Shown piece by piece: positions 15,630-41,199 of a DNA stretch of 64,000 nucleotides (positions are counted from its first letter, which is position 1; each line of letters opens with the position of its first letter). Source of the stretch: Bacillota bacterium. Lineage in GTDB: Bacteria; Bacillota; SHA-98; UBA4971. Under the pieces are notes generated by a model. It was given only the letters and a program-made list of their open reading frames with translations. It was not told the DNA's origin and searched no databases. The position numbers and the translations under genes were made by a program. The stretch lies in NCBI GenBank assembly GCA_012516125.1, contig JAAYXB010000010.1, positions 15,984-79,983 on the forward strand, given 5' to 3'.

Positions 15630-16127
15630 TCTTCCGTCACCTCAGTTCATTTCGGTGTTCATTCCTGTTACTGCCCCACGCATTCATTCCACGCCGGAAT
15701 CACGGGTCCGAAGGCCACGTGGGGTTCCGACCTTCCGCCCAAGTAGCACAACTAGAGCTGCGCGACCCCGTGTGGTTCCGTATCTCGCAAAGCATTGTTA
15801 TCGCTCTGCAGTATGGAGCAGTACCCCGCTTTAGCATGCACCTGGATCTGTTGCAACACCTCGTCGTGGCTGCCTTCCCCGGCACGCAGCACGGTCCCGC
15901 CGCCTCTGTCGAGCCTGTGTGCAGCATTCGACGCATTCCGTAACAGACACACGCTGCCTGTCTGAGTATGGCCTGTGCACCCCGACGGTTAACAGGTTTC
16001 CAATCGCGCGACAGATCGCACCACGCCGTGCCGGACACCCGGGACGTGCCCTGGGTTCCCCGCCCCGGCATAGGCCCTGAACGCTCTCTGCCACCTGGAC
16101 GGTGTCAGCCTGCCGTGGTGCTTTCCA

Positions 16128-23314: not shown

Positions 23315-23391
23315 TGGTGCGACGTGCTGGAATTGAACCAGCGACCTCAGCGATGTCAACGCTGCGCTCTAGCCAACTGAGCTAACGCCGC
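23315..23391 (-). tRNA. tRNA-Val(GAC)
   Basis: Cloverleaf, anticodon arm CAGCG-TTGACAT-CGCTG, encoded CCA. Confidence 0.95.
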
Positions 23392-23443
23392 ACTTCACTA
23401 ACCGTATCGCTTCAGGGCCTTCCCCAGCCCTGTGCGCACATTC

Positions 23444-23472
23444 ATTGTAAGGAATCCTGTCGTGTTTGTCAA
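23444..23472 (-). promoter_or_regulatory. SigA promoter of tRNA-Val(GAC)
   Basis: TTGACA-N17-TACAAT. Confidence 0.8.
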
Positions 23473-23788
23473 GCCCAAGAATGGCCGCGTGCCCGCCCGA
23501 TGCGATGGCTGCGCCTCTCGTGTCACGTGGGAGCGGCGGCTCGCCTCACTAAACGACCAAATGACTTTTCGTCTCGTCAACTCTTCGACTCCTCACCGCT
23601 TCACCTCTTGGCCCCTTCATCTTATTGCCTCATCGCCTGGTCACCTCTCCGTGAACAACGTCCTCATCCTCCCGCTCCGCACGCAACGCCCCGCAAAATC
23701 CTACAAACGCGCGCGAGGCCCTGGTTCGTCCATGGACCTCCGCCGAAGGCCTCGCACGCGCTCATGCCCCGCCCGAGGTGGACCATGC

Positions 23789-23831
23789 CTGGTCTGAACA
23801 CCCATGCCTGAACACCCTTGCCTGAACACCT
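23789..23831. repeat. Short tandem repeat, about 3 x 14 bp (TGCCTGAACACCC[A/T])
   Basis: TCTGAACACCCA TGCCTGAACACCCT TGCCTGAACACC. Confidence 0.6.
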
Positions 23832-23856
23832 GCGAGTTACTGTGTCGGCACCTTAC

Positions 23857-24054
23857 TTACATGAATACGATGACCTCTGGAACGCCGATGCGCCTCAGGA
23901 ACATGTACTCTGTCTCAGACACCCGGACGACAGAGATGTTCCCCGGGCTTCGTGGGACAAGTCCCACAAAGAAGCCCACCGGAGCTATGCTGAAGATAAA
24001 CAGCGTGACTGCGACGCCGCCGATTATCTGCCGAACGGCGGTCTCTGCATCCAT
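23857..24054 (-). CDS. Small hypothetical protein (65 aa), paralog of the next gene; possible spore protein
   Basis: Shares VVR(V/L)..EE(Y/F).FLRR.G.PE-like motif with 24078-24326; ATG with upstream RBS. Confidence 0.7.
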   Translation of the reverse strand: MDAETAVRQIIGGVAVTLFIFSIAPVGFFVGLVPRSPGNISVVRVSETEYMFLRRIGVPEVIVFM

Positions 24055-24077
24055 GGGTTCTCAGCCCTCCCTTTACA

Positions 24078-24326
24078 TCAATAAGGTGGCCCTCCCATGC
24101 CGGGCATCCCTGGCGACCCCGGAGCCATAGGCTCAATCACCCTGCATTCCGGGATACCGACCCGCCTGAGGAAAGCGAACTCCTCAGCCGTCAATCTCAC
24201 TATTGTGACTCTTTCCTGAACCTCGTCCTGGACAACGAGGAAGTACTGGTTCATACCGACCCTGAACACGCAGTGGAACACGATGCGCACGCCCATCGCC
24301 TGCATCGTCTCGGCCTGCTTTTCCAT
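24078..24326 (-). CDS. Small hypothetical protein (82 aa) with Pro/Gly/Met tail; possible spore coat protein
   Basis: RBS GGAGGGGG; IVRLTAEEFAFLRRVGIPEC; SigK-like promoter upstream. Confidence 0.75.
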   Translation of the reverse strand: MEKQAETMQAMGVRIVFHCVFRVGMNQYFLVVQDEVQERVTIVRLTAEEFAFLRRVGIPECRVIEPMAPGSPGMPGMGGPPY

Positions 24327-24360
24327 GTCCTGTTCCCCCCTCCGTGGTGATAGTCCACCC

Positions 24361-24389
24361 TATACTATGAGACCGCGAGGGAACCTGTT
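24361..24389 (-). promoter_or_regulatory. SigK-type promoter
   Basis: AACA-N16-CATAGTATA fits mACm-N16-CATANNNTA. Confidence 0.55.
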
Positions 24390-24759
24390 CATGTAGGGCC
24401 GGTGTCCTGTGTGTGCCAGCGTCTTCCATATCTTTCGGACTACCGGGGGGAAAGTGGGCCGAGAAGGGCGCCTGTCTTGCGCTCAGGTTGCGTGGAGAAC
24501 CGCGAAGGACGTCTGATGTCCGCCCCCGACGATGGCAACAACGTGAGAACGCCCCGCGGGCGGCGCGGGACGGGCGACCCGGCGCGCGGCCTACCAGGTT
24601 TGGAAAGCCGCTTGCCAAGCTGAAGGACCTTCGCCATGACGAACGGACGTCCTGGGAATTCGGCGCACCGTTAGGGACAACGGTCTTGCGCTAAAAGCGA
24701 CTGGAAAAAGTGGCGTGAAGACGAGGCACGTAAGCCGCGTAGCAGGCCGTACAAATTAA

Positions 24760-24833
24760 TGGAGGCGACACCCGGATTCGAACCGGGGATAGCGGTTTTG
24801 CAGACCGCTGCCTTGCCACTTGGCTATGTCGCC
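24760..24833 (-). tRNA. tRNA-Cys(GCA)
   Basis: GGCGACATAGCCAAGTGG...CTGCAAA...TCCA cloverleaf. Confidence 0.95.
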
Positions 24834-24857
24834 TCACCACGGTATATATATAAACTA

Positions 24858-24932
24858 TGGAGCGGAAGACGGGATTTGAACCCGCGACCCTCGCCTTGGC
24901 AAGGCGATGCTCTACCCCTGAGCCACTTCCGC
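24858..24932 (-). tRNA. tRNA-Gly(GCC)
   Basis: GCGGAAGTGGCTCAG...TTGCCAA...TCCA. Confidence 0.95.
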
Positions 24933-25007
24933 TCGAATCCTTGATCTCTTCGTGCTGGCCCGTGGGACTTTCCGTGCCAACCGGTCAACCCCCGGCTCGC
25001 GTATCTT

Positions 25008-25036
25008 AGTTTACCACGTTCTCGCCGGACTTGCAA
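25008..25036 (-). promoter_or_regulatory. SigA promoter of tRNA-Gly/Cys
   Basis: TTGCAA-N17-TAAACT with extended TG. Confidence 0.75.
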
Positions 25037-25201
25037 TACCCTTTTGACCCGCTTTTAGCACGCATCTGGCCTGCCTCACGCTCTTACCCGCTGGCACTAC
25101 TCTCGATGAAATCAACTCGAGGCGGCCGTCGCTGGCAGTCTAACCCCTGGCAGGCCGGGGAATACTGTGCTTAAGAACCCGCTGCTCAGAAAGGATGAAG
25201 G

Positions 25202-26101
25202 ATGATGGCGCTCAGCGAGGAGGATCGCCACCTGGCCGAAAGGGTCCTCGAGTCCATCAAACAGGACGCCGGTCTTTGTGCTTATGAGATAAACGTAACC
25301 GCCCGCGATGGAGTCGTCCACCTCGCGGGCATTGTGGACGTGCAGGCCGAGAAGATGCGGGCTGAGGAGATCGCGGCCAGGCTGGACGGGGTCGCCGCAG
25401 TCGAAAATGACCTTACCGTCTGCGCAGACGGGCAGGTCACCGATGATGACGTGAACTTCGAAGTCTCCGAGGAACTCAGGCTCGATCCCCGCGTGGACTT
25501 CGGCCGGGTCTACGCCGAAAGCAAGCGCGGCGTAGTGCACCTCTATGGCAAGGTGGACTCCCTTGCTGACAGGCAGGCGGCCATCAGCGCGGCTGCCAGG
25601 GCGCGAGGGGTCAAGGAGGTGGTGAGCCACCTGGAGGTAGCCGGCGGAAAGGGCCTCGACGATCCAACCATTACAAACCGGGTTCGAGCAGCTATTGCGG
25701 CGAAGAGGGGGATCGACTCCGAGCTCATCTCCGCCACCACACGCCACGGAGCGGTCCGCCTCGAGGGACGGGTCCCCAGCGCGCGCCAGGCCGAGTTCGC
25801 AGAAGAGGTCGTTCGGAACACCGAGGGACCGCGGCGAATCGATAACCTCCTCATGGCCCCTCCTCCAGGGACAACAGCACCAGAGCAGGCAGCGCATGAG
25901 GTCAGACAGGCCCTGGCAAAACACCCGTCTCTCGCAGAGCGCGTTTCCGTCTCCCTCATGGACGGAAAGGTCGTGCTTGAAGGTGAGCTCGCCGACCTTG
26001 AGCAGAAGCGCACCCTGGAGAAGCTGGCGAGGCCCATCGTTGAGCGGTTCGGAAGAGAGGTCACGGGGCTCGACATGCGCGTCACCGTTGACACCCGATA
26101 A
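25202..26101 (+). CDS. BON-domain protein (multiple BON repeats)
   Basis: Repeated INVTARDGVVHLAGIV / GVVHLYGKVDS..GVKEVVSHL / GAVRLEGRV segments. Confidence 0.85.
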   Translation: MMALSEEDRHLAERVLESIKQDAGLCAYEINVTARDGVVHLAGIVDVQAEKMRAEEIAARLDGVAAVENDLTVCADGQVTDDDVNFEVSEELRLDPRVDFGRVYAESKRGVVHLYGKVDSLADRQAAISAAARARGVKEVVSHLEVAGGKGLDDPTITNRVRAAIAAKRGIDSELISATTRHGAVRLEGRVPSARQAEFAEEVVRNTEGPRRIDNLLMAPPPGTTAPEQAAHEVRQALAKHPSLAERVSVSLMDGKVVLEGELADLEQKRTLEKLARPIVERFGREVTGLDMRVTVDTR

Positions 26102-26318
26102 CCCATAGCCAGGCAGGCGATCCACTATGTGTCGCGGCCCATTACTGACACAGCTGGACTAGTACCGCGTTTCACAATTTCCGTCAGCTTTTCAGTCCTG
26201 CGTCCCGCACGCTCGCAAGTGCGAGCAACACGGCACCCTACACGGTCTTATGAAACGGAGTACTAGCCTCAACGGGAGCGTTGGAGGGACACCAACATCG
26301 AAAGGCCCCTCAAAACAC

Positions 26319-26394
<76 letters not shown>

Positions 26395-26402
26395 TAGAAA
26401 AA

Positions 26403-26480
26403 TGGCGGAAGCGACGGGATTCGAACCCGCGATCTCCTGCGTGACAGGCAGGTATGTTAGACCAGCTACACCACGCCTCC
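26403..26480 (-). tRNA. tRNA-Asp(GTC)
   Basis: GGAGGCGTGGTGTAG...CTGTCAC...GCCA. Confidence 0.95.
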
Positions 26481-26513
26481 GCGAAACTCTAATACAATTA
26501 TCGTGTTTACATC

Positions 26514-26589
26514 TGGTGGGCGAAGGCAGATTTGAACTGCCGACCCCCTCCTTGTAAGGGAGGTGCTCTCCCAACTGAGCTATCCGCCC
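26514..26589 (-). tRNA. tRNA-Val(TAC)
   Basis: GGGCGGATAGCTCAG...CTTACAA...ACCA. Confidence 0.95.
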
Positions 26590-29080: not shown

Positions 29081-30016
29081 TCACTCAAGCCCGCGCAGCT
29101 CGACCGCGAGCTTTCTGCGAGCGTAGTGAAACAAATACTGCTGGGCGTAGCCAGCGAGGTCGCCAAACCTCTCTCGGGCGAAGTGCGCTATGGTCGCCGT
29201 GGATACTTTACTACCGCCGAAATAGAAGTACCGCATCACCCTCGTCATCCATACGTCGATAGGGAACGCCTGGTAAGACCCAAGCGAAAACAAGAGGACG
29301 CAGTCGGCGACCTTCTCACCCACGCCCCGAAGGCTCATCAGCTTGTCCTTTGCGGCCTCGTACGCAAGGTTACGGAGGCCTTCCAGGTCGATGTCGCCGG
29401 ACGCCACCCTCTCAGCCGCGGCCTTCACGTACTGCGACCTGAATCCCGCTCCGCACCTCACAAGGTCAAGGACATCTGCCGAAGCGAGCTTGCCAGGCGT
29501 GGGAAAACTGTAATAGGAGGTGTTCCCGAACTCGTCGCCGCTTTGCCGCGCGCCGCCCTCCTGCTCGATGGGATCGCCATACGCCCGTGCTATTCGTTCC
29601 ACCGCGCGCCGGATAAGCGGAATAGCGTTCCTCGCCGAAAGGATGAACGACACCAGGCACTCCCACGGCTCCTGCCTGAGCAGGCGCAGCCCGGTGAACG
29701 ACCTCACCGCGCACTCGAGCACCGGGTCCATGTCGCAAAGCCGTCTCTCAATACTCGCGTGATCCACATCAAGTGAGAAGTATTCGACCGCAAGTCGGAT
29801 GTCCTCGTCGGACGCCGGCCTGGCGAGGACCAGGGAGTCGCCTTCCTGTCTTGCCCGGAGGACCCTCCCGCGCACGACGCCGGTGAACACGTCATCCTCT
29901 GCGTCCCATCTGAAAGCCTGCCCAGACTCCAAAGTCTCCTTGAGGTTAAACGGCGAAATGCCCGAGATGACCACCTCATCCCGACGCATCTCGATCCTCG
30001 GCACTATCAAGCTCAC
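29081..30016 (-). CDS. 8-oxoguanine DNA glycosylase (OGG_N + HhH-GPD)
   Basis: TLESGQAFRW, GLRLLRQEPWECLVSFILS, LRGVGEKVADCVLLF, FPIDVW. Confidence 0.9.
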   Translation of the reverse strand: MSLIVPRIEMRRDEVVISGISPFNLKETLESGQAFRWDAEDDVFTGVVRGRVLRARQEGDSLVLARPASDEDIRLAVEYFSLDVDHASIERRLCDMDPVLECAVRSFTGLRLLRQEPWECLVSFILSARNAIPLIRRAVERIARAYGDPIEQEGGARQSGDEFGNTSYYSFPTPGKLASADVLDLVRCGAGFRSQYVKAAAERVASGDIDLEGLRNLAYEAAKDKLMSLRGVGEKVADCVLLFSLGSYQAFPIDVWMTRVMRYFYFGGSKVSTATIAHFARERFGDLAGYAQQYLFHYARRKLAVELRGLE

Positions 30017-32757
30017 TTCGCCCTTTCTTCGAGCTCTCGCAACAGTCTGCCCAGCTCGGCCAGGGACTCCCCGAACCCCGCGAAGTCCCCCTCACGGAGC
30101 CGCCTGTTGGCGTCCTCATACGCCCGAACGGCCCGGCCTGCAAGGTCGGACACGGTCGCAGCCCTCTCCTCCGGCAACGCTTGCGGCGGCGCCGGGGCAA
30201 CCTGCTCCGGCACCGCAGGCACTCGCCGCCCCTCGGGCGCGACACCGAACACCGCGGCGAGCGCGCCCTCCAGCGTGGTATCCATGGCAACAGCATTGCC
30301 GAAAGCAGCTATCACCCTCTTCAACTCCGAAAGCTCGCTCCGCTCCGCGAGGAGGTAAAGCGGTTCCACGTAGAGGATGGAGTTTTCGACCGGGATGACC
30401 AGAAGGTTCCCTCGCACGACCCTGGACCCACGCTGGCTCCAGAGGGTAAGCGCCTGTGATATAGCGGGGTTCTGGTCGATCCTCGACTCCACCTGCATGG
30501 GTCCATATACAAGCCGATCCTTGGGGAACGTATAAAGCACAAGCTGACCATAGCGCGGAAAGTCGTTTCGCGCGGCAAGCCATGCGATCATGTTGTCTTT
30601 GCCCGATGGCGTGAACGGCAGTATGAGGAGATACTCCGCCCGCTCATCGCCGGGAGCGCGCATAAACACGTAGTAGGGCTGGACGCTCTGGCGTTCCCCT
30701 CCGTATACTTCCACGGGAAAGTCCCAGAAGTCCTCCCGGTTGTAGAACGTGTCCGGGTCTGTCATGTGGTAGGTGTTGAGTACACGAGCCTGAATCGTGA
30801 ACAGGTCCTCGGGGTAACGAACGTGAGCCTTCAGTGCTTCAGGCATTTTATCTAGCGGCACGAACATCCCGGGAAAGACGCCGGACAGGCTCTTTATGAT
30901 CGGCTCGTCGGGGTCGGGGGTGTAAAACGTCACATCGCCGTTATACGCGTCAACAACCACCTTGACCGAGTTGCGGATGTAGTTGATTCCCTCCTCGATG
31001 GGCTGAGAGTAAGGGTAGTGGCCGCTCACAGTGTACGCGTCCCACATCCAGAAAAGCCTGCCATCCGCAAGGACCAGGTACGGATCTCTGTCGTAGAGCA
31101 GGAACGGCGCTATGGTCCTCACCCGGTCGTAGATATTCCGTATATACAGCACGCGGCTGTCCCGGGTCATGTCCGTCGACATGAGGAACTTCAAGCTTCC
31201 GAACCTCGCGGCGAACGCGGCCTTCCTCCAGAATGACGACAGTGGAACACCGCCGCGCCCCTCATAGCTTGTGTACGCGCTGGTTTCTCCCGTCGGGTAG
31301 TCAAATTCGCGGGCGGATGTGCCGACCACTACGTAATTGTCGGTGCGCTCCCCGTAGTAAAGCTCGGGGCGCGTCACCTCGAAGCCCCGGTCGCTTCGGG
31401 GCGGGATGTCCCTTATCATGAACTGTGGAAGCCCCTCAGCGGAAACCTCACTTACGTCGTTCATGGCGAGGCCATAGCCATGGGTATACACAAGGTGTTC
31501 ATTCACCCAGGTCTTCGCCTGCTCGGGCAACTCGGCTACAGATAGCTCGCGTGCGGACAGCGCCACCTGCCGCGTCCTGCCGTCCACGGCATACCTGTCG
31601 ATGTCAATGTCGTTGAAGTCATAGTAGACCCGGATTTCCTGGAGCTGCTTGTAGGTTTGGATGAGGGGTCGCCAGTCCCACAGCCTGATGCTTTCGACAG
31701 TATCCCGGTGAGCTGTCATGAGCCTGTCGAAGGTCAGGTCGTTGCGAACGTCGAAAGGCCGGACCTCGATGTCGCTGAGGCCGAACGCCTCCCTGGTTGC
31801 TTCGATGTTATACCTTATGTAGGGCCGCTCCCGCGATAGCTCGTTAGGCTCCACCGAAAGCTTCTGGACGGCGGCAGGATACACGGTCCCCAGCAGAAAC
31901 GACCCCACGACCAGCGCCCCGATGGCGCCAAGAGTGAGCTTTTCCGCCCGGACGAAGAGGTCGGCGAGCACGAGGACGCCTGCGATGAGCGCTATCACAG
32001 ACAGGATCTTCAGGGCAGGCAACTGGGCATGCACATCGGTGTAGCTCGCTCCGAACACAACGCCGCGAGGAGAGTACACCAGCCCCAGCGCAGCAAGGCG
32101 ATATCCCCACGCCTTCAGCAAGAAGCCGAGGGCGATCAGGCCCGCGACATGGTGCTTGGCGAGTGAGGTTCCGACTACGCGAGTGCGCCTCAGGGCAAGG
32201 GACCTCGTCAGGATGTAGATCGCGGCCACCGAGGCAGCGGTCAGAACTATAAGGGTCATCAGGATCGAGTATGTGAAGCGATAGAACGGCAAGCTGAACA
32301 GGTAGAACCCGACATCCAGGGCGAACAGAGGGTCCTTCGCTCCTCCGGACGCCCGGTGCAGGAACTGTTGGACGACCATCCAGTACGAAGAGCTTCCGAA
32401 GCCCGCGAGCACCGCAAGGACCACGCTGACAAGCAGGAAGACCAGTCTCGCCCTTCCCCCCGTCAACTGCACGGGGACATTGAGCGGCTGGAAGAGCGAA
32501 GCGAACCTTCCGAGACTCCTTCCTGCAAGCCTGAGGTTGGCATAAAAGAAGACGAAGAAGATGACGGCAACGACAACGCCCAACGCCACTCGGGAAGCTA
32601 TCGGTACCCAAAACGCCTGCGGATACCCTACCTCGCGGAACCACAGAATATCTGTGAAAAGGGTTGCGATCCCGCGGAATGACGTGACAAGGCCTACGAT
32701 CACCGCGGCTATGACAAGACCAAGGTAACGCCGGACCACCAGATTCCCCCCGTTCAT
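30013..32757 (-). CDS. UPF0182 family membrane protein
   Basis: DPLFALDVGFYLFSLP, YGASYTDVHA, IRLWDWRPL, HLVYTHGYG, NYIRNSVK; start moved to ATG 32757. Confidence 0.93.
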   Translation of the reverse strand: MNGGNLVVRRYLGLVIAAVIVGLVTSFRGIATLFTDILWFREVGYPQAFWVPIASRVALGVVVAVIFFVFFYANLRLAGRSLGRFASLFQPLNVPVQLTGGRARLVFLLVSVVLAVLAGFGSSSYWMVVQQFLHRASGGAKDPLFALDVGFYLFSLPFYRFTYSILMTLIVLTAASVAAIYILTRSLALRRTRVVGTSLAKHHVAGLIALGFLLKAWGYRLAALGLVYSPRGVVFGASYTDVHAQLPALKILSVIALIAGVLVLADLFVRAEKLTLGAIGALVVGSFLLGTVYPAAVQKLSVEPNELSRERPYIRYNIEATREAFGLSDIEVRPFDVRNDLTFDRLMTAHRDTVESIRLWDWRPLIQTYKQLQEIRVYYDFNDIDIDRYAVDGRTRQVALSARELSVAELPEQAKTWVNEHLVYTHGYGLAMNDVSEVSAEGLPQFMIRDIPPRSDRGFEVTRPELYYGERTDNYVVVGTSAREFDYPTGETSAYTSYEGRGGVPLSSFWRKAAFAARFGSLKFLMSTDMTRDSRVLYIRNIYDRVRTIAPFLLYDRDPYLVLADGRLFWMWDAYTVSGHYPYSQPIEEGINYIRNSVKVVVDAYNGDVTFYTPDPDEPIIKSLSGVFPGMFVPLDKMPEALKAHVRYPEDLFTIQARVLNTYHMTDPDTFYNREDFWDFPVEVYGGERQSVQPYYVFMRAPGDERAEYLLILPFTPSGKDNMIAWLAARNDFPRYGQLVLYTFPKDRLVYGPMQVESRIDQNPAISQALTLWSQRGSRVVRGNLLVIPVENSILYVEPLYLLAERSELSELKRVIAAFGNAVAMDTTLEGALAAVFGVAPEGRRVPAVPEQVAPAPPQALPEERAATVSDLAGRAVRAYEDANRRLREGDFAGFGESLAELGRLLRELEERAK

Positions 32758-32857
32758 GCCCCGGCGCAAGCAGCCCTCTGGGCGAGGCCGCACCCGCATT
32801 CGCGGCAGGTATTGTTCTCTTTCCGAACTTCGGCGGCCCCTGTGCGCCTCTACTGTG

Positions 32858-33097
32858 TTATGCTTCTTCAACGGGGATATGATTCCTGCCGCAGGCGCCT
32901 GCGTCAGCGAACTTTGCGGTCGCCCGTGGCGGTGGTAGAAAGCCCCGGGCCGCGTCGAGAAACCCGATGGCATGCCGCACCATGGCGGCCTTCACCTCGG
33001 GATCGTCAGCCCATTTCGCCTCCCCAGTACATATGTGCCCGAGCGCAAGACACGCGTCTATAAGCCGGGTCTCCATTGCCCAAGGCTCCATCCTCAT
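32858..33097 (-). CDS. Small hypothetical protein (77-79 aa), last gene of the rSAM locus
   Basis: GGGGATGAGG RBS immediately after the MITE; helical sequence, no recognised family. Confidence 0.45.
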   Translation of the reverse strand: MRMEPWAMETRLIDACLALGHICTGEAKWADDPEVKAAMVRHAIGFLDAARGFLPPPRATAKFADAGACGRNHIPVEEA

Positions 33098-33106
33098 CCC
33101 CCCTGA

Positions 33107-33232
33107 CTAAGTGAGGGCGCGTTAGTTCCTGTCCCTTTTCCAGTGGTTGCCGGGTTGGCGGTGTTATACTCTCTCTTTGAGTCACCGTCAACCCCTCCCA
33201 GAAATCGGAGGGATTTCTGCACCCTCACTTAG
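33107..33232 (-). mobile_element. MITE, short form (126 bp)
   Basis: CTAAGTGAGGG...CCCTCACTTAG intact terminal repeats. Confidence 0.85.
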
Positions 33233-33257
33233 CTCATGCAGCTGTCTCCACCGGGCA

Positions 33258-34031
33258 TCATGATCCCGCCGGGCCGGCCACTCGCTCCCAGCGTCCTCCC
33301 ACCCTGCTCCATATGAACCCCGCGTAATTCAGCCACCAGTGGACCAGCCAGCCGGGCCAGAGGGAGCCTGCCATGGCGTTCAGCATGCAGAAGGTAGCAC
33401 CGAGGCCTGACGGCGCCGCGAGGGCGTACCATGGCAAGAGAGTCCTCTTGCCGCGGGTAGCCCGTTTCATAGGGATGAAGTGTATAAGCCCGAACGCAAG
33501 AGATGACGCAGCGACGCCGGCTGTGACTGCGGCCTGTGCCGGAACACCGAAATGCTTTAGTGCTCCGGCCACCCCCAGCAGCGCAAGCCCCCGGAAGAAG
33601 AATTCCTCAATGAACGTCTGGGAGAACGTCATTGCTGCCCCCACTACCGCGGCGCGCACAGGGCCGCTGCCCGCAAGGGCCAGGTATGTGCCGCCGGGAT
33701 TGATCGTCCCGCTGTCCACAAGGCATCTCAGGTCTAACCGAAACAAATATGCCTGCATCGCCCTGTTCATCACAAACGCCGCCGCCCACACAGCGAACAT
33801 GTGCCGCCACGGGCATCTCACGAGCAGTGAGACTGAAAGACCGAGCGCACGCAGCGGGTCCTCCCTGCAGGCGCCCCAGCCAATGATAAGGAGAGCGATC
33901 CCCAGCAAGGGCATACCATCGACGGTTTCGTCTCTGTCAATGCCTTTGCTTCGCTTCCCCGACTCGTCGAGGTCCGAGAATATCCTCGCCACGAAGCTCA
34001 GGGCCAGCATAGAGTAGACGACCCCTGTCAT
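33258..34031 (-). CDS. CPBP (Abi/CAAX) intramembrane glutamic endopeptidase
   Basis: IEEFFFRG, FGLIHF, HWWLN catalytic motifs; hydrophobic. Confidence 0.88.
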   Translation of the reverse strand: MTGVVYSMLALSFVARIFSDLDESGKRSKGIDRDETVDGMPLLGIALLIIGWGACREDPLRALGLSVSLLVRCPWRHMFAVWAAAFVMNRAMQAYLFRLDLRCLVDSGTINPGGTYLALAGSGPVRAAVVGAAMTFSQTFIEEFFFRGLALLGVAGALKHFGVPAQAAVTAGVAASSLAFGLIHFIPMKRATRGKRTLLPWYALAAPSGLGATFCMLNAMAGSLWPGWLVHWWLNYAGFIWSRVGGRWERVAGPAGS

Positions 34032-34037
34032 ATCTCA

Positions 34038-35366
34038 TCACAACCCATCGGCAAGGGCAGCTACAACTGCCCTGACGTTCTCGTCAGCCGATCGGTCCTC
34101 GCGCCAGCCCCATAACACAGCCCTGTAAGCTGCCCTGTAGAACTCACAGTACGGGTCAGCTGAGAACACGCTCCCACCCTGGGTAAGCGCGTGGGCGCGA
34201 CATCCTCCACCACAGAAGTACGCCACCTCGCAGCGAAAGCAGCCGGGTATCCCGGTCACGTCAGGCACCAGGCTCTTTCCTGTGCGACGTATCTTCGAAA
34301 GAGAGTCGCCCGGCAGCCTTCCGAGAAGCATATCGGGACGGTGCATCAGGGGGCACGGGTACACGGCGCCGTCCGGACCAACACTGAGGATATCGTGACC
34401 GGCGCCGCACCCGGATTTTGTGCACAGATCAATCGGCGAGCTGGGACCCGCCTTGCTCGACGACCCGTCCCACCCCTGATAGGTCTCTCTGACAAGCGAG
34501 GCAAGGCACGTGAGAAGGTCCCGCGGTGGGACCGAGAGGTCTGCAGCGTGGCATGCCCCCCGCCCCACTGGCATGAACAGGCTGAAATGATAGCTGACGC
34601 CGAGGTCCCTGGCGAGCCTCACGATGCCGGGCACATGTGCAAAGTTCTTTCGGGTAAGGGTGGGTACGATCTCGATCTCGCTGACGCCAGCAGAAAGCAG
34701 TGTGCGGATGCCGCGAATCGCCGCGTTGAAACTGCCCCGGCCTCGCGCTGCTTCATGTGCGGCAGCGTCATCCGACTCGATGCTCACTTGCACCCTTGCT
34801 CCACACTTCCTTACATGCTCGGCCTCCTTGTCGCCGATCAGGCAGCCGTTCGTCAGGAGCACTACGTCGTCAAACCTGCGAGCCGCGAAAGCCAATATCT
34901 CGGCGATGTCGTCTCGAAGAAACGGCTCCCCACCGCTTATGACGAGACTGCGAGGTCTCCCCGATGCCAGGGCATCGAGGACCGCCAGGGCCCCCTTGGT
35001 CGAAAGAGGGTCAGTGCCCGGTAGGTCTCCAGCTGCGAAATAACACGTCGGGCAGGCAAGGTTGCATCTGTCGGTGACGTTGAAGTGCGCCCGAACCAGC
35101 CTTGCTACCTGCCCAGCCTCGACTATGAGCCCGGTGACAAGAAGATAACGGAAAAGCGCCTCTATCTCTTCGGGGCTCGCCCCCCGCCCGGTGCATTCCC
35201 GGGCCACAAGCTCGCGCACCGTCTGGCCCCCGGGGTTCTCCGCGAGCTGGTATGCCTCGCGGTTAAGCTTGATCCACTCGAGGGTGGTTGGATTTACCAG
35301 CACGTACTGGCCTCCGAACTCAAGTACCTGCACACCAGGACCGATCGTGTAGACCTTCTCATCCAT
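34038..35366 (-). CDS. Radical SAM/SPASM peptide maturase with N-terminal RRE-like domain
   Basis: CNLACPTC, SGGEPFL, CGAGHDILSVGPDGAVYPC, CFRCEVAYFCGGGC..DPYC; N-terminus VLEFGGQYVLVNPTT..W..LN..A plus three helices. Confidence 0.9.
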   Translation of the reverse strand: MDEKVYTIGPGVQVLEFGGQYVLVNPTTLEWIKLNREAYQLAENPGGQTVRELVARECTGRGASPEEIEALFRYLLVTGLIVEAGQVARLVRAHFNVTDRCNLACPTCYFAAGDLPGTDPLSTKGALAVLDALASGRPRSLVISGGEPFLRDDIAEILAFAARRFDDVVLLTNGCLIGDKEAEHVRKCGARVQVSIESDDAAAHEAARGRGSFNAAIRGIRTLLSAGVSEIEIVPTLTRKNFAHVPGIVRLARDLGVSYHFSLFMPVGRGACHAADLSVPPRDLLTCLASLVRETYQGWDGSSSKAGPSSPIDLCTKSGCGAGHDILSVGPDGAVYPCPLMHRPDMLLGRLPGDSLSKIRRTGKSLVPDVTGIPGCFRCEVAYFCGGGCRAHALTQGGSVFSADPYCEFYRAAYRAVLWGWREDRSADENVRAVVAALADGL

Positions 35367-35410
35367 GATCCCGTCAGCCCCCTTGGCAGTGTGGGCGTCC
35401 CCTCACAAAG

Positions 35411-35596
35411 TCCGGCGCAGGAAGCCTCCCAATTTATTGCGAGGAGGAATGCGCTTTATCTCCTTCCTTTGTTGGGTGCGGAAGATTGTTCCTCCGCACC
35501 CCGTGCCCCGTCGTAAGGGGCTTGTGACGTGCTGGGACGGACTCTTCCCAGCATGGTTTCACCGCAAGCCTCGGATTCAAGTCCGGGGTAGTTGAC
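35411..35596 (-). mobile_element. Non-autonomous IS200/IS605 (IscB/HEARO-end type) miniature element, about 186 bp
   Basis: Left end GTCAACTACCCCGGACTTGAATCCGAGGCTTG; right end CGCATTCCTCC...GGAGGCTTCCTGCGC; no ORF. Confidence 0.65.
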
Positions 35597-35679
35597 CGTT
35601 GTCCTCATGAACAGCGGGGGCGGGCGGCGAAGCAGCAACCCGTTGTCCCGTCGCCCGCCCATGCACCCCGCGGCCCGGC

Positions 35680-35781
35680 TTACCCTATCGTGATCCGGTG
35701 GCCCCATAGCCTGAACGTGAAGCAGTATCCGTCGATCGCAAGGTCCACCCTGATCCTCTTGCCGCCAAGCTTTCCGTACAT
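35680..35781 (-). CDS. Candidate RiPP precursor peptide (33 aa, MYGKLGGKRIRVDLAIDGYCFTFRLWGHRITIG)
   Basis: Strong RBS AAGGGAGGTG 6 nt before ATG; directly upstream of RRE-rSAM; followed by GC-rich hairpin. Confidence 0.7.
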   Translation of the reverse strand: MYGKLGGKRIRVDLAIDGYCFTFRLWGHRITIG

Positions 35782-35941
35782 CCGGTGCACCTCCCTTCCC
35801 CGCCCTCGTAGCGGGTGAGCTGGATATGCTTGCCTGGGCCGGCTCAGGTCGCCTCTGGCGATCCCAGTCTACCAGCCCCACGGACACTGCACCATTCCCC
35901 GAACGGGCGACTTATGATGGCTCCAACGGGTGAACCGACGC

Positions 35942-36427
35942 TTAACGGACGCCCCGGCTGTATACGTATCTGACCGCCTGAGACCGGTTCCTCACCCTGA
36001 GCTTCCTAAAGATGCTCGCCACATGCGTTTTCACAGTGTTCACACTGATGTATAGCTCCTGTGCAATGTCCTTGTTCCGCAAACCCTTTGCAAGCAGCCT
36101 CAACACGTCGAGCTCCGTCCTCGTAAGATATACCGCCGCGTCGCGCTCCGGAGGGCCAGCCTGCCCCGGGGATGCCGCGCCGCCACCCCCGGACCTTGCG
36201 GCCGTTGGAGCCGGTCCGGAAGCAGCCACCGTCTCGCGCAGCACCGAACGTCCGCTGAAGTCCCCGCCCGAGGCATCCGCGCCCGGCATCGCGGCTATAG
36301 CCGCTGAACACGGGGCAATCCTTAGGGTACCGACAACCTCCACGTCGCCCAGGGAAAAGGCAGATCCCACGTCAAAAAAGTTGTCAACCGTGCCGTCGTC
36401 AAGCACCAGCACTCTCAACCTGCCCAT
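35942..36427 (-). CDS. LuxR C-terminal HTH regulator with degenerate N-terminal domain
   Basis: LTRTELDVLRLLAKGLRNKDIAQELYISVNTVKTHVASIFRKL. Confidence 0.88.
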   Translation of the reverse strand: MGRLRVLVLDDGTVDNFFDVGSAFSLGDVEVVGTLRIAPCSAAIAAMPGADASGGDFSGRSVLRETVAASGPAPTAARSGGGGAASPGQAGPPERDAAVYLTRTELDVLRLLAKGLRNKDIAQELYISVNTVKTHVASIFRKLRVRNRSQAVRYVYSRGVR

Positions 36428-36709
36428 GGTCATCCCCCCAACGGAGTTATGCCAGAGGAGACAGGCAAGGCAACCCACTACAGCCTGCGCTGGCCGACCT
36501 ACCCAAGCTCCCCCACTCGACCAGCGCAAATCACATCATCGGTGCCACCCAGGCCCATATCTGGGAGGTGATGCCATGCAAGAATCATGGTAACACCAAT
36601 TACTGGTAATGTCAAGGGACATAGAGATCGACGCAGACTACGTATGGCTACAACTTCGCACCGGCGCGCCGGCGGCTTCCAGAGCCCCGGCACCCGTATG
36701 TCCGGACAT

Positions 36710-37318: not shown

Positions 37319-39325
37319 ATGTCTGATATCGCGCTGATCGCACCGTATGAGAATCTCGCCGCGATGGCCCTCGAAGTCTCGCGAAGCATTCGCAAGCCCG
37401 TCAGGGTAGAGCGTGCCCTCCTGGGCGAGGCACCGGAGGTCGCGCGGCGCCTTAAGAAGGAAGGGGTCCAGGTCCTCATCAGCCGCGGCGGGACAGCGCT
37501 CATGCTGCAGGACGCGCCCGACCTGGGCCTGCCGGTAGTCGAGATCCGCGTGACTGCTTACGATGTGGTCCGCGCGGTTGCAAAGGCCCGGCTTTTCGGT
37601 CGCCGCATAGGCATCGTAGGCTTCGAGAACATGGTCCTTGGAGCGAGCACGCTCGGCGAGGCGATGGATGTGGACATAAAGGAGCTCGTCCTGGAACACG
37701 CTCGGGACGCCGACGAGATGGTGCGCGCAGCCCTCCAGGATGGAGTCGATGCCCTGATAGGCGGCGTGATAACTGTGCGAACCGCCGAAAAGCACGGTGT
37801 CAGGGCGGTGCTCATAGAGTCGGGACCGGAAGCCGTGAGGCAGGCCATCGACGAGGCGTCACGGGTCCTGTGGGTCAAGAAGCGTGAGATGGCGCGGGCA
37901 GAGCAATTCAAGCTCATCATCGATAACGTGTCCGACGGTATCATCGCCGTCGATGATACCGGACACATCACCGTCTTCAACGAGGCAGCCCAGCGGTTGA
38001 CCGGCCGCGCCGCGGGCGATGTCGTAGGACGTCACGTGAATGACGTGCTGCCTGAGATCGGTTTCGCAAGAACCCTCGCGGCCGCCTCCTCGCCGTCAGG
38101 CTCTCCGCCCATCTTTCCGTCTGAGTCTGACTCGCAGTCCGCCGCCCCAGAGGTGCGCCGCATAAACAGCACTCTCGTCAACGTGACCCGCGTGCCTATT
38201 GTCGTTGACGGCTCGTGCGTGGGTGCAATCGGCACGTTCCAGGACATCGGCAGGCTTCAGGCGCTCGAAAAGAACCTGCGCAGGAGACTTTACACGCGCG
38301 GCCATGTGGCCCGGTTTACATTCGGCGATATCGTGGGTACGAGTAGCGCGGTCCGGGCTGCTGTTTCAAAGGCGAAGCGCTTCGCGAGCGTTGACTCAAC
38401 AGTTCTAATCCTCGGGGAGACGGGAACCGGCAAGGAACTTTTCGCCCAGAGTATCCACAGTGCAAGCGCCAGGCGTGACGGGCCGTTCGTCGCTGTCAAC
38501 TGCGCCGCGCTCCCGGAAACCCTTTTGGAGAGCGAACTCTTCGGGTACGTCGAAGGCGCGTTCACGGGGGCCAAGCGGGAGGGCAAGCAAGGCCTGTTCG
38601 AGCTGGCCCATCACGGGACGATTTTCCTGGACGAGATCGCAGGCATGCCTTTGCGGCTCCAGGCCCGCCTCCTCAGGGTCCTTCAGGAGAGGGAGGTGAT
38701 GCGGCTCGGGGACGACCGCACGATCCCGGTTGACGTCCGCGTCATCGCCGCTTCTAACAAGGACCTCCGCAGCCTCGTTGCGGACGGCCTCTTCCAGGCG
38801 GATCTGTACTACCGACTGGATGTCCTCAAGCTGGTGGTACCCCCGCTACGCGACCGGCCGGAGGACATACCCCTTCTCGCGAACGCGTTCGCGGAGACCC
38901 TGTCGCGCAAGCTCGGCACGGCGTTTCGCGGCTTCGCCGACGACGCGCTGGCTATCCTTTCAGCTCACGCGTGGCCTGGCAACGTCAGGGAACTGAAGAA
39001 TACTGTGGAGAAGTGCCTCGTGCTTTCGGAGAGCGGGATCATCACGCGAAGCGAAGTGGTCGACGCCATGGGCGATCCCCCTAACATAGGTACAGGCGAT
39101 ACAGCCGACCCTTCACATGGCGGCGCCGAGCCAGATCTCGAGAGCCTCGTGAGGGCGGCAGAACGCGAGAGCATCGCCCGTGCTCTGAAGGCATGCGGAG
39201 GGAACAGGAGTGAAGCCGCCCGTCGCCTTGGAATCGACCGGACCACGTTGTGGCGCAAGCTCCGCCGGAGCGAGGGCGTGCCGCAGCGGCGAAGGGCGCG
39301 CCGACAAAACGGCGGGGCGTCATGA
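37319..39325 (+). CDS. Sigma54-dependent enhancer-binding protein (PrpR_N, PAS, AAA+, Fis HTH)
   Basis: [61 protein letters not shown]. Confidence 0.95.
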
Positions 39326-39915: not shown

Positions 39916-41199
39916 GTGGTTCTTGACTTGAAGTACGGTAGATCCCGCGTCCCCCTCGACCTGGACAGGCTCCGGAACACACAGGTGTTGACGGGCCGCG
40001 AGGCCGAGCCGCTCTCTGACCTTCGAGGTGAGGTCCTTTCCAGGCTCAGACGCCCAACGGGCACCCGCAGCTTGCTCGACGAGGTCAGGCGCAAGCACGC
40101 CCGGAAGGTTGTCATCATCGTCAACGACATCACGAGACCGACGCCGTACGCTGACATCTTGCCGCCCATTCTGGACGAACTCCGGGAGGCGGGCATAGCC
40201 GACACCGACGTGACGTTCGTGGTCGCCACCGGGATACACCGGGGAATGACTAACGAGGAACTGCGGCTGATGCTAGGAGACGAGGTCTACGATACGTACG
40301 ATGTCCGAAATCACGATTGCGACGACGACGCCAACCTGGTCGATCTCGGCCGACTCCGCTTCGGCACAGAACTTTATGTCAACCGCGCCGTCCTCCAGGC
40401 CGATTTCGTCATAGCCACCGGAGTCGTTTCCCCTCACTACTTCGCCGGGTTCTCCGGCGGCCGCAAGGCGATCCTGCCAGGCGTGTCAGGCCGGGGCACC
40501 ATCTCTCACAATCACTCACTCATGACTTCCGAGGCGGCCGCTGTCTGCAACCTCGACGGCAATCCGGTCCACATCGAGATGGTCGAGGCCGCCCGCATGG
40601 CCGGCGTGGACTTCATCGTGAACACGGTCACGGACGGAGTCGGGAAGATCGCGGCGGTCGTCGCAGGAGACGTTGAGAAAGCGTGGCTCGAAGGTGTAAG
40701 GATCTGCTCGCATTTCGTCGTCGCCCCCATAGACCGACAGGTCGACGTAGCGATCGCAAGCGCCGGCGGATTCCCAAAGGATATCAACATCTATCAGGCG
40801 CAAAAAGCCATCGACAACGCCGAGCGTGCCGTAAAGAAGGGCGGCACCATCGTGCTCCTCGCTGAGTGCCCGGAAGGATGTGGGGAACCGACCTTTGAGA
40901 GCTGGATGACAGGCGCAAGAAGCCTGGATGATATATTCCGTCGCTTCGCCGCCGGATTCGAGCTTGGTGGGCACAAGGCCTATAGCCTGGCTCGAGTCCT
41001 GCGGGATAAGGAGGTCATCCTGGTCTCAGCCCTCGATGAGGCTTACGTAAGAAACCTATTCCTCACCCCAGCCCCGGACCTCAACAACGCTCTTCACCTT
41101 GTCGAATCAAGACATGGCAAAACGTACGAGTCGACCGTCATGCCCTCTGCGGGAGTCGTGGTTCCAGTTCCAGGAGGTGGTGCCGTGGAAGATATTTAG
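39916..41199 (+). CDS. larA: LarA-family nickel-pincer racemase/epimerase
   Basis: IIVNDITRPTP, VATGIHR, HDC, PHYFAGFSGGRKAILPG, NIYQAQKA, GGHKA. Confidence 0.9.
   Translation: MVLDLKYGRSRVPLDLDRLRNTQVLTGREAEPLSDLRGEVLSRLRRPTGTRSLLDEVRRKHARKVVIIVNDITRPTPYADILPPILDELREAGIADTDVTFVVATGIHRGMTNEELRLMLGDEVYDTYDVRNHDCDDDANLVDLGRLRFGTELYVNRAVLQADFVIATGVVSPHYFAGFSGGRKAILPGVSGRGTISHNHSLMTSEAAAVCNLDGNPVHIEMVEAARMAGVDFIVNTVTDGVGKIAAVVAGDVEKAWLEGVRICSHFVVAPIDRQVDVAIASAGGFPKDINIYQAQKAIDNAERAVKKGGTIVLLAECPEGCGEPTFESWMTGARSLDDIFRRFAAGFELGGHKAYSLARVLRDKEVILVSALDEAYVRNLFLTPAPDLNNALHLVESRHGKTYESTVMPSAGVVVPVPGGGAVEDI

Follow-up and report, generated by a model that had tools for sequence, protein, structure and literature searches.

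Does the 33-codon open reading frame (ORF) that stands directly upstream of a radical S-adenosylmethionine (SAM) enzyme gene in an uncultured member of the Bacillota encode the substrate of that enzyme, and if so, what is made from it? The locus lies in a 64,000-nucleotide stretch of DNA, here called the window, which spans positions 15,984 to 79,983 of contig JAAYXB010000010.1 (assembly GCA_012516125.1; GTDB lineage Bacteria; Bacillota; SHA-98; UBA4971) and whose first letter is position 1 of all window coordinates given below. Four co-oriented genes on the minus strand are at issue: a LuxR/GerE-type regulator (35942-36529; Pfam GerE, E=7e-21), the 33-codon ORF (35680-35781; ATG at 35781, TAA at 35680-35682), a radical SAM/SPASM enzyme of 442 amino acids (34038-35366; Pfam Radical_SAM, E=6.6e-21) and a CPBP (Rce1-like, type II CAAX) intramembrane protease (33258-34031; Pfam PF02517). 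An earlier note, made from the sequence alone, had picked out this set, including the ribosome-binding site (RBS) of the short ORF, and all of it is present and on the strand described. The four-gene unit is known from about 50 loci in uncultured Bacillota (Firmicutes). On comparative grounds, the cassette around the 33-codon ORF very probably represents a new family of enzyme-modified secreted peptide. The 33-mer and the radical SAM enzyme are very likely a precursor and its maturase, and the cassette as a whole is likely to be a unit for a peptide that is made on ribosomes and modified after translation by a radical SAM enzyme (RaS-RiPP), with the gene-by-gene division of labour proposed below.

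Judged by its substitution pattern, the ORF is a real coding gene under strong purifying selection in its frame. It translates to MYGKLGGKRIRVDLAIDGYCFTFRLWGHRITIG and is preceded, 6 nt ahead of the ATG, by the Shine-Dalgarno (SD) sequence AAGGGAGGTG (35788-35797, minus strand), the near-perfect RBS of the earlier note. Exactly 33 codons, begun by ATG or GTG, were found in 23 of 23 genome loci, each with GGAGGTG or GGGGGTG 6-7 nt ahead of the start. Among 13 closer sequences, codon positions 1, 2 and 3 vary in 8, 6 and 30 of 32 columns, and the ratio of nonsynonymous to synonymous differences per site (pN/pS) is ~0.11, with pS near saturation. The fixed length with its SD in 23 genome loci and the coding-type substitutions place the ORF beyond chance; the prospect that it might be untranslated, which the earlier note had raised against itself, is countered at this level by in-frame purifying selection and the conserved SD. 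A structured RNA in place of an ORF was considered and ruled out, as Rfam gave nothing in the region at E<=1 and the substitutions are those of a coding sequence. When all small ORFs around the cassette were clustered, this was the sole family found in 21 of 21 loci tested; the remaining clusters seem to reflect conserved intergenic DNA, or else large genes read out of frame or on the antisense strand.

The peptide is strongly constrained throughout. Residues G7, C20, F23, W26, G27, T31 and G33 are invariant in the peptide alignment (A2), save that G27 is replaced by I in a more distant peptide, P0127. Position 17 is D or N in 21 of 22 distinct peptides (Ser in the remaining one), giving a [DN]-x-x-C motif, while position 25 is L, C, V or F and position 28 is H, Y, V or F, never K. 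Identity between peptides stays at 79-97% even where that between the enzymes falls to 46-75%, and in the distant group, with enzymes 32-36% identical, the peptide reads ...GRKRRMNVSVNSFCVNFILWGYLITIG. The N-terminal half begins with MF or MY and is basic, with alternating hydrophobic residues; the peptide is cationic overall and its C-terminal half is very hydrophobic.

Peptides of this kind are rarely annotated: a query extended upstream to 40 amino acids matched only four protein clusters among 5.8 billion. Against NCBIfam and Pfam the peptides gave no family match, save that one of 22 touched DUF4236 (PF14020) at 16.5 bits (E=0.012), under its gathering score of 27; the others gave nothing. 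An exhaustive protein search matched the peptide to the repeated blade hairpins of beta-propeller proteins (P0126, P0128 and P0129), for example RCC1-like ...DLDGYADTLYMWGxN.... We rejected homology to the propeller repeats or to DUF4236 and regard both as resemblance of pattern only, the E-values being inflated by 4-6 repeated short matches; the likeness suggests that the peptide forms a beta-hairpin or beta-meander.

Peptide and enzyme occur together, from whichever of the two the search is begun. Homologues of the enzyme (P0001-P0027; 40-94% identical, all from metagenome-assembled genomes (MAGs) of uncultured Bacillota) were aligned as A1 (28 sequences), this alignment was used to scan contigs of one genome per species, and the peptide was sought in the fetched loci by tblastn. 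It was found upstream of the radical SAM gene in 22 of the 26 closest relatives, at enzyme identities down to 32%; nearly all of these 22 loci also have the LuxR gene upstream and the CPBP gene downstream, and all four genes are together in 21 of the 26. For the reverse test, a degenerate DNA pattern drawn from the conserved peptide residues alone, C-x2-F-x2-W-G-x2-[IV]-T-[IV]-G-stop, was run against a metagenome collection. It returned 30 stretches, of which 29 bear an SD and encode bona fide 33-residue peptides; the thirtieth (L095) matched by chance. A LuxR gene lies upstream in 29 of 29 of these loci and a radical SAM homologue downstream in 26, the other three contigs stopping a few hundred bases or less from the peptide gene. 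The earlier note had looked to a similar peptide beside the enzyme's homologues as its first check, and the reverse search finds the enzyme wherever the contig is long enough.

The association holds across distance and context. The divergent peptide P0127, MFGKRTGKMARIDVAIDGYCINFPIWIFEITLG, directly abuts a radical SAM gene whose product is 26% identical, and the distance from peptide to enzyme gene ranges from overlap to 462 nt. Intact cassettes lie in differing neighbourhoods, next to UPF0182 and a presumed sigma-54 activator gene in the window and its relatives and next to Obg/NadD/HD genes in L019. The metagenome contigs come, as named in their records, from bioreactors and fermentation, and several MAGs of the genome collection come from anaerobic digesters.

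Some loci at the margins of this survey deserve separate mention. The radical SAM gene of metagenome contig L087 is in two pieces (2106-2776), and ambiguous bases interrupt the peptide start of contig L102 (2925-3026); both are probably assembly artefacts rather than pseudogenes. Two outgroup radical SAM enzymes, ~30% identical and from Omnitrophota and 'beta proteobacterium' MAGs (L023 and L026), are preceded by Cys-rich peptides (L023 10-522, in three tandem copies; L026 4665-4937). These have an MF-x-[IV] start in common with the window family and matched no known precursor family.

The enzyme has the radical SAM core and the auxiliary-cluster ligands of a SPASM maturase. C101-x3-C105-x2-C108 (CxxxCxxC motif, 35043-35066, minus strand) and G145-G146-E147-P148 are invariant in 28 sequences. 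So are the SPASM residues C320, G333-x4-C338, C376-x2-C379-x5-C385-x3-C389 and C407 (cysteines at 34146-34409, minus strand), read against the seven-Cys pattern Cx9-15Gx4C ... Cx2Cx5Cx3C ... C; a further cysteine upstream, C272, is nearly invariant. By this pattern, the SPASM cysteines are the full set for two auxiliary Fe-S clusters. The Pfam SPASM model matches 27 of 28 family members, the window protein itself scoring 17.7 against a cut-off of 21.5. Profile-to-sequence search put CteB (4e-31) and SkfB (1e-30) closest among solved structures, followed by PqqE and anSME, and an AlphaFold model of the full enzyme (predicted local distance difference test (pLDDT) 85, predicted template-modelling score (pTM) 0.83) has its best PDB fold matches in CteB, TigE, SkfB and SuiB.

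Residues 1-85 of the enzyme (35112-35366, minus strand) were assigned by AlphaFold2 and Foldseek as a RiPP recognition element (RRE), the PqqD-like domain for peptide recognition. Modelled alone, residues 1-88 gave a pLDDT of 92.5 and a sheet of beta-strands followed by three helices. Foldseek matched this model best to TbiB1 with bound leader (5v1v; E=7.6e-5, template-modelling (TM) score 0.64, root-mean-square deviation 2.8 A), and next to the RREs of TigE, TruD, lasso-peptide B1 (6jx3), LynD, ThcOx, CteB and PbtF. The question is settled by fold comparison only, sequence methods barely detecting the domain: Pfam PqqD is found in one of 28 members (8.6e-5), and a PDB profile search of the N-terminal domain gave no significant match. 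As a statement about the modelled fold, the assignment of the N terminus as an RRE holds, and with the invariant cysteines it bears out the enzyme architecture proposed in the earlier note (an RRE-like N-terminal domain, CxxxCxxC and a full SPASM set).

Judged by family scores, neither peptide nor enzyme is a member of StsB, SCIFF, WgkB, MftC or any other curated family. The best full-length NCBIfam match of the window enzyme is StsB (NF045574), with 118 bits (cut-off, 625); the same model scores 146 and 149 bits for P0018 and P0024 and 100 for L019, and is also top for two outgroup enzymes (127-139 bits). MftC (TIGR03962) gives 119.5 bits for the window enzyme against a cut-off of 265, and the peptide ends T-I-G, not Val-Tyr. 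WgkB (NF050035) gives 108 bits against 650 and covers the radical SAM core only (residues 95-270). The SCIFF maturase model reaches 90 bits for P0018 against a cut-off of 425 and is absent from the 25 matches listed for the window enzyme. A literature search found neither the peptide motifs nor cassettes of a radical SAM gene with a CPBP/CAAX gene; published bulk RaS-RiPP datasets were not covered by that search, and an unnamed prior listing is possible. The earlier note had recognised no known class in the peptide, and this judgement agrees with the family searches, with enzyme scores far under all curated cut-offs and with the searched literature. Its reading of the layout (RRE, radical SAM/SPASM, short peptide and CPBP) as that of a RaS-RiPP-type cluster stands as well: the radical SAM core, the SPASM domain, the RRE and an adjacent, co-conserved short precursor were all found in sequence or fold.

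Several known systems nevertheless offer instructive comparisons. The type 2 sactipeptide system of streptosactin, GggA/GggB, which we take to be the NCBIfam StsB family, likewise pairs an enzyme of RRE, radical SAM and SPASM domains with a short precursor that has a Cys donor, and a four-residue ring is possible in the window peptide too (C20-x-x-F23). It differs in that its precursor, with two Cys to the single one of the window peptide, shows no sequence relationship to the latter, that the regulator here is of LuxR type in place of the quorum-sensing control of streptococcal RaS-RiPP clusters, that a CPBP partner is present and that the hosts are uncultured high-GC Bacillota. Streptosactin contains four-residue thioether (sactionine) rings (PMC9389541). 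The SCIFF (ranthipeptide) pair CteA/CteB (TIGR03973/TIGR03974) is similar in that no solved structure is closer than CteB in sequence or in fold, RRE included, in that its short precursor is highly conserved and in that precursor and maturase appear to be vertically inherited in a Bacillota lineage. The window peptide, in contrast, has one Cys where SCIFF has six in ~45 residues, and lacks the SCIFF motif and any NCBIfam match; C272 of the enzyme falls at a position without cysteine in CteB. The NxxC RaS-RiPPs (NxxcA/NxxcB) have an N-x-x-C motif in the core, comparable to the [N/D]-x-x-C motif of 21 of 22 distinct peptides (D17-G-Y-C20 in the window), but no NxxcB model is among the matches listed, and they are regulated differently and have other accessory genes. 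The product of NxxcB is a beta-thioether between Cys and the C-beta of Asn, and the enzyme accepts Asp, Ala or Gln in its place (PMC9389541).

Modification of the 33-mer by the radical SAM enzyme is the predicted central step of the RaS-RiPP reading. We infer a leader/core split in which the N-terminal half (~residues 2-16, starting MF or MY; basic and strand-forming) would be the leader that docks on the RRE. The enzyme would then abstract a hydrogen atom and link the sulfur of Cys20 to a nearby carbon, forming one thioether ring at a cost of 2 Da (-2 Da). The preferred acceptor would be the C-alpha of Phe23 (a C-x-x-F ring, as in streptosactin), then the C-beta of Asp/Asn17 (as in NxxC peptides), then Thr31. 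By analogy with these systems, a single thioether from the invariant Cys20 has about an even chance of being the actual product. The lean towards it comes from the nearest solved relatives, CteB and SkfB, being thioether formers, from the sactisynthase StsB heading the full-length NCBIfam matches of the window enzyme and likewise those of two more family members and two outgroup enzymes, and from the invariance of Cys20 together with the Cys-rich precursors of the outgroup loci. Precedent points the same way, in the four-residue rings of streptosactin and in the beta-thioether of NxxcB with its tolerance of Asp (PMC9389541).

Several observations weigh against the picture of a precursor carrying one thioether. 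The carriers are all uncultured MAGs. All characterised maturases lie far from the enzyme (~25% identity; 118-149 bits against 625), so that chemistry is not transferable to it with confidence. Auxiliary cluster I is fully ligated in SuiB, anSME and PqqE, and CteB has an open site there for the substrate Cys; C272, nearly invariant, aligns to a non-Cys position of CteB and may, as a weak pointer, signify a fully ligated cluster and hence not a CteB-style mechanism. W26 and F23 vary no more than C20 does, which is compatible with an aromatic C-C crosslink. No leader cleavage motif is obvious in the peptide, and its entire length is conserved, unlike the usual conserved leader with a variable core.

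C272 and the invariant aromatic residues also bear on the main, though unlikely, alternative, in which cassette and substrate are the same and the enzyme makes a C-C or C-O crosslink on an aromatic residue (Trp26 or Phe23), with Cys20 otherwise employed, much as the enzymes of streptide, tryglysin, triceptide, darobactin or Trp-Arg/Ile-Trp crosslinks do. Besides the invariance of W26 and F23, it can draw on WgkB (108-119 bits) and DynA (107 bits) being among the better NCBIfam matches, on SuiB being among the top fold matches, on the aromatic-x-x motifs W-G-H and F-R-L, and on C272, which may complete auxiliary cluster I as in SuiB. The confinement of the WgkB match to core residues 95-270 tells against it, as do the variable third residues of both motifs (positions 28 and 25) and the lack of an invariant Lys/Arg partner; the best full-length matches, moreover, are thioether enzymes, and the outgroup precursors are rich in Cys. 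The specific analogy to WGK (tryglysin), which the earlier note had drawn from W-G-H, we abandoned: the Lys position is variable and never holds K, G27 is I in the subgroup of P0127, and WgkB matches the radical SAM core only.

Returning to the RaS-RiPP reading, the regulator and the DNA upstream of the peptide gene suggest dedicated control. The LuxR/GerE C-terminal helix-turn-helix occupies residues 135-189 of the regulator, whose translation probably begins with the ATG at 36427 or 36433; its N terminus is a degenerate stub of a receiver domain, reduced to RLRVLVLDD...VEVVG and joined to a low-complexity linker. A conserved 20-nt box, AAGTCGCCCGTTCGGGGAAT (35894-35913, minus strand), precedes the peptide gene; the dyad CCCG-TT-CGGG forms its core. 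The box has no second copy in the window, where 0.04 chance matches are expected, occurs once per locus in 35 related loci and stands upstream of the peptide gene in 22 aligned upstream regions, those of the most distant group included. A putative -10 element, TAGACT (35866-35871, minus strand), extended as TGgTAGACT, follows 22 nt downstream of the box; a scan for sigma-70 consensus elements did not call it. No good -35 accompanies it, as expected of an activator-dependent promoter. The box would be the operator of the adjacent LuxR-type activator, centred at about -50 of the peptide promoter, and binding of the LuxR protein to it would switch that promoter on.

Regulators of related cassettes vary at the N terminus. 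In two deeper-branching loci the cassette LuxR protein has a complete NarL-type receiver (L012 339-1052; L013 2058-2858), and in the distant group the N termini are replaced by unrelated sequence. A small hairpin, CCCGC...GCGGG (35799-35815, minus strand), lies directly ahead of the SD in the 5' untranslated region of ~85 nt.

Between the precursor and enzyme genes, ~20 nt past the peptide stop, single-sequence folds show a GC-rich stem-loop, GGGCGGGCG...CGCCGCCCGCCC (35618-35660, minus strand). The closer loci have it too; the stem sequence of the L007-L011 subgroup differs, and members of the close group share the loop motif CAAnnGGGTTGC. The RNAalifold consensus is weak, the stems of the two subgroups aligning out of register; no T-run follows the stem, and a terminator scan did not call one. 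From position and fold, the hairpin may be a partial terminator or a transcript-stabilising element. It is usually by such hairpins that precursor mRNA is kept more abundant than enzyme mRNA, and this one would act likewise.

The third conserved partner is the protease, encoded from 6 nt past the radical SAM stop. PF02517 gives 40.4 bits (cut-off, 22.4), and the family motifs EExxxR, FxxxH and HxxxN appear without variation as EExxFR, FGxxH and HxxLNY across 19 homologues; because all three catalytic motifs are kept without exception, these are probably active proteases. A CPBP gene follows the radical SAM gene in most related loci with sequence downstream of it, so the co-oriented CPBP gene of the earlier note has been found again in the relatives with its catalytic motifs intact. 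Abi/CPBP proteins of Gram-positive peptide loci confer bacteriocin immunity, and MroQ takes part in the maturation of the staphylococcal autoinducing peptide. The cassette resembles such loci in placing a CPBP protease with three catalytic motifs beside a small secreted-peptide gene, and the protease would trim the peptide at the membrane, protect the producer, or both. The L007-L011 sublineage and matching metagenome contigs have genes for an ABC ATPase and an ABC-2 permease between CPBP and the UPF0182 pair (L010 7177-8786, from locus comparison; absent from the window), which in these relatives would add an exporter. The expected product is a cationic-hydrophobic peptide with its site of action at the membrane or outside the cell.

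This outward direction counts against a second and very unlikely alternative, in which the peptide is the precursor of a small cofactor akin to PQQ or mycofactocin: the radical SAM enzyme would crosslink two residues and the protease excise them for intracellular use. Fixed length, the invariant C-terminal T-I-G, conserved chromosomal synteny and a peptide 79-97% identical over enzymes of 46-75% would all suit a cofactor, and MftC is among the top NCBIfam matches at ~120 bits; MftA also has an IDGxCG motif, to which IDGYC in the window peptide is similar. MftC nonetheless falls short of the 265 bits required and the peptide lacks the defining Val-Tyr at its C terminus, the cassette lacks further tailoring enzymes or cofactor-dependent dehydrogenases, the partner protease is intramembrane and some loci have an ABC-2 exporter, and the peptide gene has an activator-type promoter to itself, as genes for secreted peptides typically do. 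That the ORF is no substrate at all, being a regulatory upstream ORF that works by attenuation with the hairpin or a small unmodified beta-sheet protein, with the enzyme acting elsewhere, is most improbable: the strong hairpin behind the ORF, the likeness to propeller blades and, weakly, to DUF4236, and the want of an evident leader cleavage site are outweighed by constraint over all 33 positions (pN/pS 0.11) above that of attenuation leaders, the absence of a run of one regulatory codon, a peptide-enzyme distance (overlap to 462 nt) unfit for a fixed attenuator, an RRE that demands a peptide substrate, the lack of any other conserved small ORF in the cassette, and a DUF4236 match in only one of 22 peptides, under cut-off.

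If the 33-mer is a modified and secreted peptide, its role may be to signal rather than to kill, a possibility that we hold at slightly less than even. Fixed length, extreme conservation relative to the enzyme, synteny and a dedicated pair of regulator and operator speak somewhat more for a signal or self-directed peptide than for a fast-evolving bacteriocin; in this evolutionary behaviour the nearest parallel is found in SCIFF peptides. The CPBP/Abi-type protein and, in some loci, the ABC-2 transporter are compatible with bacteriocin immunity and export. More speculatively, the modified 33-mer, or a hydrophobic C-terminal fragment released by the CPBP protease, could be the pheromone of an unseen Gram-positive signalling circuit. 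A radical SAM crosslink, possibly of a new type (Cys20 with Phe23, Trp26 or Thr31), would create the signal, the CPBP protease would mature or release it, and the LuxR protein with its decayed receiver would sense it and activate the peptide promoter through the 20-nt box; the high identity of the peptide beside the more divergent enzyme would fit co-evolution with a receptor. Taken jointly, these steps are unlikely.

The cassette matters in several respects. Its key gene is almost always missed by gene callers, so that in public annotation it looks like an orphan 'radical SAM protein'. Four genes and a 33-residue substrate form a compact, portable unit suited to heterologous co-expression, and an enzyme so far from characterised maturases could add a reaction or a ring topology to the radical SAM toolbox. 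Conservation, fixed length and the cassette's own regulator-operator pair suggest a physiological role, in signalling or self-directed, in a lineage of uncultured Bacillota from digesters and bioreactors. Many uncharacterised radical SAM RiPP families are already known from genome mining, and this one is an addition to a kind already known, not the first of a new kind.

The gene that follows the protease is not a fifth member. The earlier note had counted a small ORF of 79 amino acids (32858-33097, minus strand; no Pfam or NCBIfam match) as part of the system. We rejected it as a cassette member: it is conserved, yet it stays directly upstream of UPF0182 when the ABC genes intervene and is absent where the cassette lies elsewhere, which assigns it to UPF0182. 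The UPF0182 ORF itself (30013-32973, minus strand; 986 amino acids) overlaps the 79-residue ORF as called; because homology begins at residue 64-74, its true start is probably ~72 codons later, near 32757.

Synteny with the cassette extends, in the closer relatives (L001-L006), to two ORFs on its other side. The first, at 37319-39325 (plus strand), is divergently oriented and by the look of its sequence presumably encodes a sigma-54-type activator; the second, at 39916-41199 (plus strand), we provisionally labelled LarA-like. Further away, the window holds a cluster of six tRNA genes (23315-26589, minus strand; Val-GAC, Cys, Gly, Phe, Asp and Val-TAC) and a purine riboswitch aptamer (RF00167; 54669-54772, minus strand) that scores 44.4 bits against a gathering score of 37.

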